IMG/VR virus record: IMGVR_UViG_3300027628_000010
Coordinates: 16,390-80,389 of that record
Strand: one strand, 5' to 3'
Origin: a virus
Taxonomy: Duplodnaviria > Caudoviricetes
DNA: 64,000 bases
Under the pieces are notes generated by a model that saw only the letters and a list, made by a program, of their open reading frames with translations, searched no databases and had not been told where the DNA came from. Positions within the stretch are counted from its first letter, which is position 1. The number at the start of each line of letters is the position of its first letter. A program made the translations under genes and the position numbers. Shown here piece after piece: positions 47,632-59,312 of this stretch.

Positions 47632-47659
47632 TTAAGGTAACTAAAGGGAGGAAAAGAAA

Positions 47660-47902
47660 ATGAAATTAGCAGATATTCTTGGTAATGGTGCAGTGGGAAG
47701 ATATATGTTAGTGGAGCCGGCGTGTGACCCGGCGGCTCCTGCTTTTGCTAAATGGACTGGAGTTATTATAGAAAAAAGAGAGAATGGCGCAATCAAAGTA
47801 CGAAACCCTAGAGGAACTAGATATGATAGTGGAGATTTATTAAACCTTAGTGGTTTAGCTGTTAGATCAGAGTGGACATATCTTAGAGAGGGTGAGATGT
47901 AA
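47660..47902 (+). CDS. Hypothetical protein (80 aa)
   Basis: RBS ggagg. Confidence 0.65.
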   Translation: MKLADILGNGAVGRYMLVEPACDPAAPAFAKWTGVIIEKRENGAIKVRNPRGTRYDSGDLLNLSGLAVRSEWTYLREGEM

Positions 47903-48036
47903 TGGAAAATCTTGAACGAGATGTTAAATGGGAATGTAATGATTGTGGGCACGTATGGTATCGAGAATATGAGTTCGAAGAGACGCAATGTGACAATGAT
48001 AAATGCCAAAGCACAAGTATCACTTATGAATTGTAA
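47902..48036 (+). CDS. Small zinc-ribbon protein (44 aa, not in ORF track)
   Basis: CNDC...CDNDKC; TAATG coupling. Confidence 0.6.
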   Translation: MENLERDVKWECNDCGHVWYREYEFEETQCDNDKCQSTSITYEL

Positions 48037-48054
48037 TTAAGGGGGAGAGTAGAA

Positions 48055-48930: not shown

Positions 48931-49902
48931 ATGAGCAAATATAAATTACGGTTAAATGAGCAGGAGACATTAGCAATGATCGAAAAGGCACAAGCTGGAG
49001 ATAAAGATGCAGCAGATGTATTGTTTAGAGCTAATGAGGGAATTATCTGGACTATTATAAAGCCATCTATCGGTAAAGGCGGTAAATCTAAAGAAGACAT
49101 CTTTCAGGTAGCTTGTATAGGGTTTCTAAAAGCCGTTTATAACTATAACCCGGAGATTGCTAAGTTCGGTACATTCCTAAATATTAAAGTGAGTGGAGAA
49201 TTAAGAAGATACTTTCGAGATAATCAGAGTGTCATCCACGTTCCACGAACTATTAAAGAACTAGGCGCTAAAATCTTAATGCACCAGCTACGAGATGAGT
49301 CTTTCGAAGTTATAAAAGAGAAGTTAGGTGTTACAAATGATAGACTACTTGCGGATACTCTGAATTATATAAACAGAGGTACAGCTCATGTAAGTTCTCT
49401 ATATACAGTAGTAGTTGAGGGAGAAGGAGAGGACCTTACATTAGAAGATCAATTAGCTGGAGATTTAAACGGAGCTGATTGGGAAGATGACTTAGTACTC
49501 CTAACTTCTGTAAAAGAAGCGATTAACTGCTTAACTGACAGAGAGCAGGTAGTTATTCGTAGTAAGTATATCGAAAATAAATCACAAGTTGAGATAGGTA
49601 AGGAACTCGGTATTTCACAGATGCAGGTATCTCGTATAGAGCGTAAGGCGTTGCTTAAGTTAAAAACAATTATAACGCAAGAGCTAAGCACGAAGGAACC
49701 TATTACTGAAGAGATGCTGCCCGGTTATAAACCTAGAAAAGCTCCAAAAGCTCAAGAATCTAGAGGGGACCGTGCAGAAGCTATTCGTCTAATACAAGAA
49801 ACAGAGTTAACATTTGCAGAGATTAGCAGAATCACAGGTGTACCTAAAACAAGCGTATCTGATTTAAACCGTAGAATGATTAAAAAAGCTGTTGCCAAAT
49901 AA
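48931..49902 (+). CDS. SigF/SigG-like sigma factor with extra C-terminal HTH
   Basis: AQAGDKDA, EDIFQVACIGFLKAV, GELRRYFRD...IHVPR, and region 4 SQVEIGKELGISQMQVSRIERKAL. Confidence 0.9.
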   Translation: MSKYKLRLNEQETLAMIEKAQAGDKDAADVLFRANEGIIWTIIKPSIGKGGKSKEDIFQVACIGFLKAVYNYNPEIAKFGTFLNIKVSGELRRYFRDNQSVIHVPRTIKELGAKILMHQLRDESFEVIKEKLGVTNDRLLADTLNYINRGTAHVSSLYTVVVEGEGEDLTLEDQLAGDLNGADWEDDLVLLTSVKEAINCLTDREQVVIRSKYIENKSQVEIGKELGISQMQVSRIERKALLKLKTIITQELSTKEPITEEMLPGYKPRKAPKAQESRGDRAEAIRLIQETELTFAEISRITGVPKTSVSDLNRRMIKKAVAK

Positions 49903-58156: not shown

Positions 58157-58260
58157 GTTTCCCTGTTTCCCATGTTTCCCCGTTTCCCGTGTTTCCCTCA
58201 ATTTTGGGTCGAAAACGGCGGTATAGAGCCATTTTAGGTATATGTATAGGGTAGGGAAAC
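58157..58260. repeat. 5x GTTTCCC direct-repeat array plus an inverted copy (centromere/loading-site candidate)
   Basis: Copies at 58157, 58165, 58174, 58182 and 58191 (period 8/9); GGGAAAC at 58254. Confidence 0.9.
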
Positions 58261-58309
58261 AGAGGGTAACGGCTACATTTTGGGTAGATAAAAGGGAGGT
58301 AATTTTACC

Positions 58310-58921
58310 GTGAAAGTGACATTTAACGGAGGAGAATTTTATAGAGTAACGACTCAATTCAATTCAGTGGATTCTCTGCATAAGAATGGGCATACAGGAA
58401 TTGATCTTTCAATGGAATCTGGCACGAAACTTTTGAGTCCGGCGGATGGAGTTGTGGAAAGAATTGTAGATTATGGTTCTCAAAATATTGGCAAAGGCGT
58501 AATAGTAAAAATAGAAAATGGAGATAGGTTGATTTTCGGTCACATGTCAGATACTTCCCAAGTTCATGTAGGTGATACACTTCATGCAGGGGATTTGGTG
58601 GGATTATCTGGAAATTCCGGCAGGAGTACTGGCGCACATTTACATTTTGGAGTTAAGGACCCTCAGAATAATTTTACAGACCCTGCCCCTTACCTTAACG
58701 GCGGTTCTGGCAAAGAAATAGTGCAAATGCCTTCTCCTGAAGGGTGTGGCGTATTTGAGAAGGCAGATGCAGCAAACATTGTAAGTGATTCAATGAGTAA
58801 GTTTGGCGATATGCTTTCTGATATGACAGTAAATTTTATAGACATTATTCATTTTACTCTATTACACGCCATTCCCATAATGTCTCGAGCACTAGGAGTA
58901 ATTCTTTCTTCGTTAAGTTAA
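58310..58921 (+). CDS. M23 (LytM) metallopeptidase with hydrophobic C-terminus
   Basis: HTGID, GHM, SGNSGRSTGAHLHF and DP..YL motifs; GTG start with RBS ggagg. Confidence 0.9.
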   Translation: MKVTFNGGEFYRVTTQFNSVDSLHKNGHTGIDLSMESGTKLLSPADGVVERIVDYGSQNIGKGVIVKIENGDRLIFGHMSDTSQVHVGDTLHAGDLVGLSGNSGRSTGAHLHFGVKDPQNNFTDPAPYLNGGSGKEIVQMPSPEGCGVFEKADAANIVSDSMSKFGDMLSDMTVNFIDIIHFTLLHAIPIMSRALGVILSSLS

Positions 58922-59024
58922 TTCCTTTTTTATCCTTTAAGGAATGAATAACCAACTCATCCACATTCTGTAATTGGCGTTCGTATCTTGGAATTGATGT
59001 ATCGTTGAATAGGTAACTAAACAT
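58854..59024 (-). CDS. 56-aa antisense protein (not in ORF track), possible wHTH fragment
   Basis: The minus strand reads AAGGAGG-9nt-ATG, giving MFSYLFNDTSIPRYERQLQNVDELVIHSLKDKKGINLTKKELLLVLETLWEWRVIE*. Confidence 0.75.
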   Translation of the reverse strand: MFSYLFNDTSIPRYERQLQNVDELVIHSLKDKKGINLTKKELLLVLETLWEWRVIE

Positions 59025-59046
59025 TTTTATCATCCTCCTTGGAGGA

Positions 59047-59076
59047 TAGTATGACCAAACTAAAATTAAAATATAC
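59047..59076 (-). promoter_or_regulatory. Sigma-G consensus promoter
   Basis: The minus strand reads GTATA-N18-CATACTA immediately upstream of the antisense gene's RBS. Confidence 0.7.
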
Positions 59077-59090
59077 TGGAGGAATTTAAA

Positions 59091-59312
59091 ATGGCAATTT
59101 TAGCAATCGCAGGCGGTATTGGTGTAGTATGTGTGGCAGGTTCAGCAACAGTGGCAGCGTTAAAGTTTTTTAATACATGGGAGCCAGATTTTAGTAAAGT
59201 AGGTAAGAAATCTTCTCATAAAGCAGGTAAAGGTCCTTCAAGTCATCGTGATAGTGAGCGTACAAACGGATTAAGAAATAAAATCGGCAACAATAACAGC
59301 ATTCACGAATAA
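59091..59312 (+). CDS. Small membrane-anchored protein (73 aa)
   Basis: N-terminal hydrophobic helix, basic/polar tail; RBS ggagg. Confidence 0.65.
   Translation: MAILAIAGGIGVVCVAGSATVAALKFFNTWEPDFSKVGKKSSHKAGKGPSSHRDSERTNGLRNKIGNNNSIHE

Follow-up and report, generated by a model that had tools for sequence, protein, structure and literature searches.

A forespore-type promoter of apparent dual sigma-F/sigma-G class precedes a conserved 56-codon gene in Bastillevirinae phages

The promoter described here has its closest known counterparts in the forespore promoters of Bacillus subtilis, for which the sigma-F consensus reads GTATA at -35 and GGNAANAMTR at -10 (PMC3416734 Table 4, after Wang 2006, Eichenberger 2004), and the sigma-G consensus GNATA and CAWAMTA (PMC3416734 Table 4). 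In the same compilation sigma-E is assigned the -35 element TYATATTT and the -10 element KCATANANTN, and sigma-K the pair KCACM and GCATANNNTA (PMC3416734 Table 4). Promoters of sigma-F and sigma-G differ little from one another; those of sigma-F are marked by a G before the -10 element and those of sigma-G by a final A, and the spoVT promoter, which is dual for both factors, carries both hallmark bases (PMC3789822). The phage promoter that is the subject of this report shares boxes and spacing with the host sigma-F and sigma-G promoters, including the G ahead of the -10 element and the final A (PMC3416734, PMC3789822). It differs from them in that it lies on the genome of a virulent phage, in front of a phage-only gene without a host homologue, and in that its activity is a prediction.

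Among phage-borne genes, sspC within SPbeta is sigma-G-dependent. Excision of SPbeta is under the control of a mother-cell sporulation sigma (PMC4191935), so that in SPbeta, as in the case presented here, genes carried by a phage appear to be under a host sporulation sigma specific to one compartment; SPbeta, however, is a temperate prophage that is excised in the mother cell, whereas the present gene belongs to a myophage of the obligately lytic type and would be expressed in the forespore. That genomes of lytic Bacillus phages can become trapped in spores has been described (PMC12991052, PMC9429907), and such 'virospores' have been known for decades and are now under ecological study. For phi29, entrapment is attributed to repression by Spo0A together with host segregation functions (as cited in PMC9429907, PMC12991052). 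As far as these citations describe it, phi29 resembles the phage studied here as a lytic Bacillus phage adapted to spore carriage; it relies on binding sites for a host regulator and acts before septation, whereas the present gene would, as proposed below, supply a dedicated phage protein after compartmentalisation. A further precedent is sigma-Fah, a SigF-like factor that acts at a late promoter of phage Fah (PMC4113786). Like our phage, Fah infects Bacillus, encodes a SigF-like sigma and has only one SigF-type promoter in its genome (PMC4113786); in contrast to Fah, the promoter reported here persists in phages without a SigF-like sigma, and the conserved sigma of the Bastillevirinae behaves unlike SigF/G in B. 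subtilis (PMC9429907). In a literature search of limited reach, no paper came up in which a virulent phage has a forespore-type promoter ahead of one of its genes; nor, the regulator-binding sites of phi29 apart, did any phage gene devoted to the spore stage, or any transcriptome paper on Bastillevirinae.

The stretch of DNA analysed, a window of 64 kb on an 80-kb genome fragment, derives from a Bastillevirinae myophage (Herelleviridae) with 89% identity to Bacillus phage vB_BmeM-Goe8 and 73% to phage f2b1; plasmid sequences gave no match to the window region. The first-pass annotation had described, on the minus strand, GTATA, an 18-nt spacer, CATACTA, AAGGAGG, an ATG and 56 codons, and every one of these elements is found at the coordinates claimed for it. 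The -35 element GTATA (59076-59072, minus strand) is identical to the published sigma-F -35 and fits the sigma-G GNATA (PMC3416734 Table 4). It is followed, 15 nt away in the sigma-F register, by the 10-mer GGTCATACTA at 59056-59047, which contains the sigma-G core CATACTA (59053-59047), 18 nt from the -35 element in the sigma-G register. Transcription is predicted to start at 59039-59041 on the same strand, about 7 nt below the -10 element, as judged from the usual distance between the two. The Shine-Dalgarno sequence AAGGAGG (59040-59034) is separated by 9 nt from the ATG at 59024, and the 56-codon gene, referred to below as the micro-gene, occupies 58854-59024 on the minus strand, including its TAA stop at 58856-58854. 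As the window's Shine-Dalgarno sequence begins 6 nt past the -10 element, the mRNA would start at the ribosome-binding site itself, which is unusual; phages of the B. cereus group have a longer leader. The listing of open reading frames places the start at an upstream ATG (59033, 59 aa); the 56-aa start is preferred, since the ATG at 59033 abuts the Shine-Dalgarno sequence and the relatives align to the shorter form. A GGAGG-type Shine-Dalgarno sequence lies 7-11 nt 5' of the start codon at 13 loci of 11 phages, and both Goe8 and f2b1 are annotated with a 56-aa hypothetical protein at this position.

On the plus strand the micro-gene is flanked by an M23 metallopeptidase gene (58310-58921; PF01551, E 6e-21) and by a gene for a small DUF7394 membrane protein (59091-59312; PF24126, E 7.5e-19), whose Shine-Dalgarno sequence (59079-59085) sits just upstream of the micro-gene's -35 element on the opposite strand. 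Micro-gene and M23 gene overlap by 68 nt (58854-58921, both strands), probably incidentally; the length of this overlap had been given correctly, but its description as head-to-head has to be reversed, since the 3' ends converge and the arrangement is tail-to-tail. That this is the only credible minus-strand gene of the window is plausible, given that none of five longer minus-strand frames that were checked had a PHROG match, and one of them covers small plus-strand frames. The 122-aa minus-strand frame that fills the gap at 47632-48054, without PHROG match, is probably spurious; opposite to it, two short plus-strand frames preceded by Shine-Dalgarno sequences were seen by eye, the second of which is Cys-rich and zinc-ribbon-like.

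Scored against the published B. subtilis consensus sequences, the window promoter agrees with sigma-G at 11 of 11 positions (core 7/7) and with sigma-F at 12 of 13, the 10-mer matching at 7 of its 8 specified positions with C for A at position 4. The sigma-G consensus of Helmann and Moran reportedly has 17-18 nt between the boxes. No second sigma-G site of 11/11 occurs in the 128 kb made up by both strands of the 64-kb window, and a combined requirement of at least 11/13 for sigma-F and at least 10/11 for sigma-G singles out one of 1278 bins of 100 nt, namely that of the micro-gene promoter. The looser consensus GHATR-N17/18-CATNHTA, on the other hand, has two occurrences in the window, both strands counted, against some 2-3 expected from an estimate based on composition, so that this match alone is not significant. 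A sigma-E promoter was also considered. By eye the window taken alone comes close (7/8 at -35, one mismatch at -10), but the boxes lie 1-2 nt too far apart for the usual sigma-E spacing, and the -10 elements of the B. cereus group lack CATA; this class was therefore rejected.

Conservation in relatives goes, as judged from the sequences compared, far beyond chance. Homologues within the ParM-to-FtsK module were sampled as 23 homologues from phage records, 3 further metagenomic lineages and 5 further Siophivirus genomes (31 in all), four of which proved to be the same phage reached twice by way of different collections. All 27 distinct homologues that remain, spanning about 16 lineages and several genera, have a promoter at the same position that scores 10-13/13 for sigma-F and 9-11/11 for sigma-G, with a spacer of 14-15 nt in the sigma-F register and 17-18 nt in the sigma-G register. 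Across 13 non-redundant lineages the information content peaks on G-T-A-T-A and on G...A.A.TA and is low in the spacer and the flanks. The invariant columns G...A.A.TA correspond to the consensus bases common to sigma-F and sigma-G, and both the first G of the 10-mer, the sigma-F hallmark, and its final A, the sigma-G hallmark, are invariant in these lineages. The sigma-G core CATACTA is found in phages of the subtilis, megaterium and pumilus groups; phages of the B. cereus group carry perfect sigma-F 10-mers, for example GGTAAAACTA and GGCAATACTA, and TsarBomba, BCP78, McCartney, Bcp1 and JBP901 reach 13/13 for sigma-F. The promoter had been put forward as a perfect sigma-G promoter, and the sigma-G match of 11/11 stands; exclusivity for sigma-G does not, given that the invariant bases are those shared by both factors and that the -10 elements of the B. 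cereus group are of the sigma-F type. On this comparison the element is best called a conserved forespore-type promoter of dual F/G character rather than one of sigma-G alone.

The exact motif was counted in five complete or near-complete genomes from different genera: four have a single copy, always before the micro-gene, and Goe3 has two, one of which precedes the micro-gene. With up to two mismatches allowed, the counts equal those of a reversed-pattern control, which rules out the motif as a general class of phage promoter. The second exact GTATA-N18-CATACTA of Goe3 (NC_048652.1, 111463-111492) lies about 210 nt before the hypothetical gene gp163 and may be a chance occurrence.

The micro-gene itself is, to judge from its pattern of substitution, a real gene under purifying selection. 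The first-pass annotation had named tblastn as a check on conservation, and such searches returned 97 phage records with an intact homologue when the window protein was the query, and 156 when a more central member of the family was used; the promoter is likewise kept in relatives. Nearly all of these records are Bacillus Bastillevirinae, with hosts of the subtilis, pumilus, licheniformis, megaterium and cereus groups. The product (56 aa, 6.8 kDa, pI 5.8) matches phrog_5065, a phage protein family without assigned function, over its full length (E 8.3e-13, residues 6-56 on profile positions 4-53 of 53). Pairwise dN/dS values range from 0.03 to 0.34, with synonymous sites often saturated, and differences at codon positions 1/2/3 number 121/68/247. 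Purifying selection is also evident in phages of the B. cereus group, where no other gene overlaps. A profile HMM search of 1.84 billion representative proteins returned only 30 small clusters, all of the same family and 48-81 aa in length, and a pattern-based scan of 185,579 representative bacterial and archaeal genomes gave, within its limits, no host or prophage homologue; the family thus appears to be a phage-only orphan. A divergent member on a 4.2-kb metagenome contig (L055, 154-413) follows another small open reading frame on the same strand and has no forespore-type promoter, so that the family is present in a second genomic context. Two of the records with the micro-gene bear the host labels Staphylococcus aureus (f2b1, MN940411.1) and Xanthomonas oryzae (Xoo-sp15, MN364664.1), both of which look doubtful.

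An AlphaFold2 model computed from 18 sequences (pLDDT 77, above 90 in the core) predicts helices at residues 13-19, 21-33 and 39-52, with neither a strand nor a wing. Searches of Pfam, NCBIfam and PDB sequences gave no informative match, including none to a helix-turn-helix family; the ESM Atlas provided no lead, Foldseek against the PDB nothing significant (best E 0.45), and a wide fold search with VIA-align nothing significant either (best Z 3.6), while a fold search of BFVD returned the protein's own family alone. According to the model, then, the micro-protein is a three-helix orphan without an informative relative in sequence or fold. An earlier impression of a winged-helix-like tail finds no support, the model having no wing and the searches giving no significant helix-turn-helix match in family or fold.

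The micro-gene opposes the surrounding ParM/ParR-(M23)-membrane protein-FtsK module of Bastillevirinae myophages, and this orientation is conserved; apart from HNH or DNA-endonuclease genes inserted nearby, it is the lone opposite-strand unit of the module in all sampled phages. This arrangement, together with the lack of a predicted intrinsic terminator downstream of the micro-gene in the window, TsarBomba and Goe5, makes it conceivable that transcription runs on, antisense, into the M23 gene or into the repeat array and parR that take its place. One could accordingly imagine that the antisense RNA is the main product, that unterminated transcription in the forespore silences the module through M23, parR and parM, and that the peptide is secondary. 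We consider this very improbable. Strong purifying selection on the protein argues that the protein is functional, the downstream content differs by clade (M23, or repeat array plus parR), and the overlap with M23 varies from 4 to 95 nt where the M23 gene is present. The residues of M23 inside the overlap are poorly conserved even between phages of 89% identity, whereas the C-terminus of the micro-protein is highly conserved. At this module position the M23 gene is absent from eight phages of the B. cereus group, in which the place and orientation of the micro-gene are nevertheless kept; where neighbours are annotated there, they are a parR-like gene on one side and the DUF7394 gene on the other, with the micro-gene again on the opposite strand. 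Antisense control of the peptidase, as first suggested, is thus contradicted by the absence of its target in these eight phages, the variable overlap and the unconserved tail, although transcriptional interference could be an added effect beside the core function. The last ~20 residues of M23, antisense to the micro-gene, are hydrophobic, poorly conserved and variable in length, and this tail looks like an overprinted read-on to the first stop rather than a functional domain. Two smaller elements of the first-pass annotation fared in a similar manner. The palindrome around the Shine-Dalgarno sequence exists in the window but is missing from f2b1, and an anti-Shine-Dalgarno hairpin, not being conserved in relatives, was rejected as a regulatory element. 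The 12-codon plus-strand uORF (59051-59089) also exists, but it is reduced to 5 codons in Mater and absent where the -10 element has no CAT; since its start codon is the complement of that CAT, it is a by-product of the -10 element, and with neither length nor sequence conserved it was not retained as a regulatory element.

As regards the sigma factor that reads the promoter, the window's phage encodes a candidate of its own (48931-49902), with Pfam matches to regions 2 and 4 and best matches to SigB/F/G and spore_sigF (E 5e-43 and 2e-42, below the curated cut-offs), and homologues of this SigF/G-like factor are found in Goe8, Mater, phiNIT1 and Goe3. It might read the promoter in the course of ordinary lytic infection, in which case the micro-gene would be a timed lytic gene; the SigF-like factor of Fah, which serves at least one viral promoter (PMC4113786), sets a precedent, and a lone target would fit the finding of one motif per genome. 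We nonetheless hold this to be unlikely. No match to a sigma of the SigB/F/G family was obtained in six Siophivirus genomes (SIOphi, Yucatan, Mawwa, fHSPT3, TimeGriffin and KKP_4048; loci L005 and L056-L060), of which five are complete; in this they differ from most of their Bastillevirinae relatives. In SIOphi neither region 2 nor region 4 was matched, and the five others show at most weak or fragmentary matches to region 4. The same six retain the micro-gene behind a perfect promoter, GTATA-N14-GG[TC]CATACTA, which speaks against a promoter tied to a co-occurring phage SigF/G-like sigma in the manner of Fah. Furthermore, induced g157 of Goe3, a 29%-identical homologue of the window's sigma, left host sporulation genes almost unaffected and hardly induced host genes with the same consensus, in contrast to a host-like phage sigma that mimicked sigF/sigG (PMC9429907). 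On the strength of the Siophivirus promoters and the g157 result, host sigma-F/G is favoured over the phage factor as the one that would read the micro-gene promoter, although both could use it, the two readings not being exclusive. An alternative of a different kind is that sigma-A drives the gene from a TATAAT-like hexamer overlapping GTATA and that the forespore likeness is fortuitous. The window does contain TTGCCA-16-TATATT (59070-59097, minus strand; 10/12), the -10 element of which overlaps the forespore -35, and a TATAAT-like hexamer of 5-6/6, often directly after TG, is present in 10 of 13 lineages. The corresponding -35 element is, however, unconserved (2-5/6), LY2 (GAATA), Shbh1 and phiAGATE (3/13 lineages) have no sigma-A -10 and keep the forespore pattern, and the invariant G...A.A.TA block at a fixed distance of 14-15 nt would be left unexplained. 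We regard this alternative as improbable, though the sigma-A-like match makes some vegetative expression or leakiness possible in the window's phage.

We therefore return to expression from a host forespore polymerase, and consider it probable, if by no means certain, that the micro-gene is a conserved gene of these phages, encodes a small cytoplasmic protein of three helices, and lies against the direction of its module under a host forespore-class (sigma-F/sigma-G) promoter. It had been suggested that the locus is a compartment-specific switch, fired either in the forespore or by the phage's own sigma; the forespore version, with a host sigma, is the best reading of the evidence, and the phage-sigma version is less favoured. 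During growth the promoter would show little or no activity. Should an infected host enter sporulation and the phage genome be enclosed in the forespore (a 'virospore'), polymerase containing host sigma-F and then sigma-G would transcribe the micro-gene there, such that the micro-protein would be made only in the compartment that carries the phage genome through dormancy. It would then probably bind a phage or host protein, with the outcome that the trapped genome is kept quiescent or stable, or that its reactivation is prepared; holding the genome quiescent or preparing reactivation is the most likely role, as a guess from context. A shut-off of the module or of the lytic programme, as had also been proposed, is speculation.

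The significance of such a promoter lies in what it would say about the phage life cycle. Retention of a forespore-type promoter across the sampled genera, one per genome, implies selection for forespore expression, and under such selection the spore stage would be a part of the life cycle and not an accident. Along these lines, one may tentatively go further and suppose, with a good deal more doubt, that the 'strictly lytic' Bastillevirinae have evolved a spore-borne stage with gene expression of its own, in which the micro-protein is a dedicated forespore factor under host sigma-F/G that silences or stabilises the trapped genome or arms it for germination, and in which the ParM/ParR-FtsK module is the machinery that brings the genome into the spore. 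The adjacent ParM-FtsK module is, at any rate, possibly related to sporulation, and the 30-bp promoter with its 56-codon gene offers a testable handle in phages that infect B. subtilis 168, such as Goe3 and fHSPT3.

A few observations on the surrounding genomes may be added. In phages of the B. cereus group, an array of GGGAATTT-like repeats (GGGTAATT-like in Bcp1) lies between the micro-gene and the parR-like gene, in modules from which M23 is missing (L040, 1072-1201; L043, 1066-1150; L044, 1036-1198); it is probably a partition centromere, corresponding to the GTTTCCC array that the window has at 58157-58290. Goe8 carries a second open reading frame of the sigma-70 family (NC_048797.1, 149122-149859; L025; region 2 E 1.4e-14), far from its SigF/G-like one and in a region to which the window's 80-kb genome fragment does not extend. 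In the Goe8 module, moreover, the parR-like gene and M23 are separated by an opposite-strand gene for an HNH endonuclease (L001, 3130-3810), which is absent from the window, and other relatives have HNH genes at various positions of the module.
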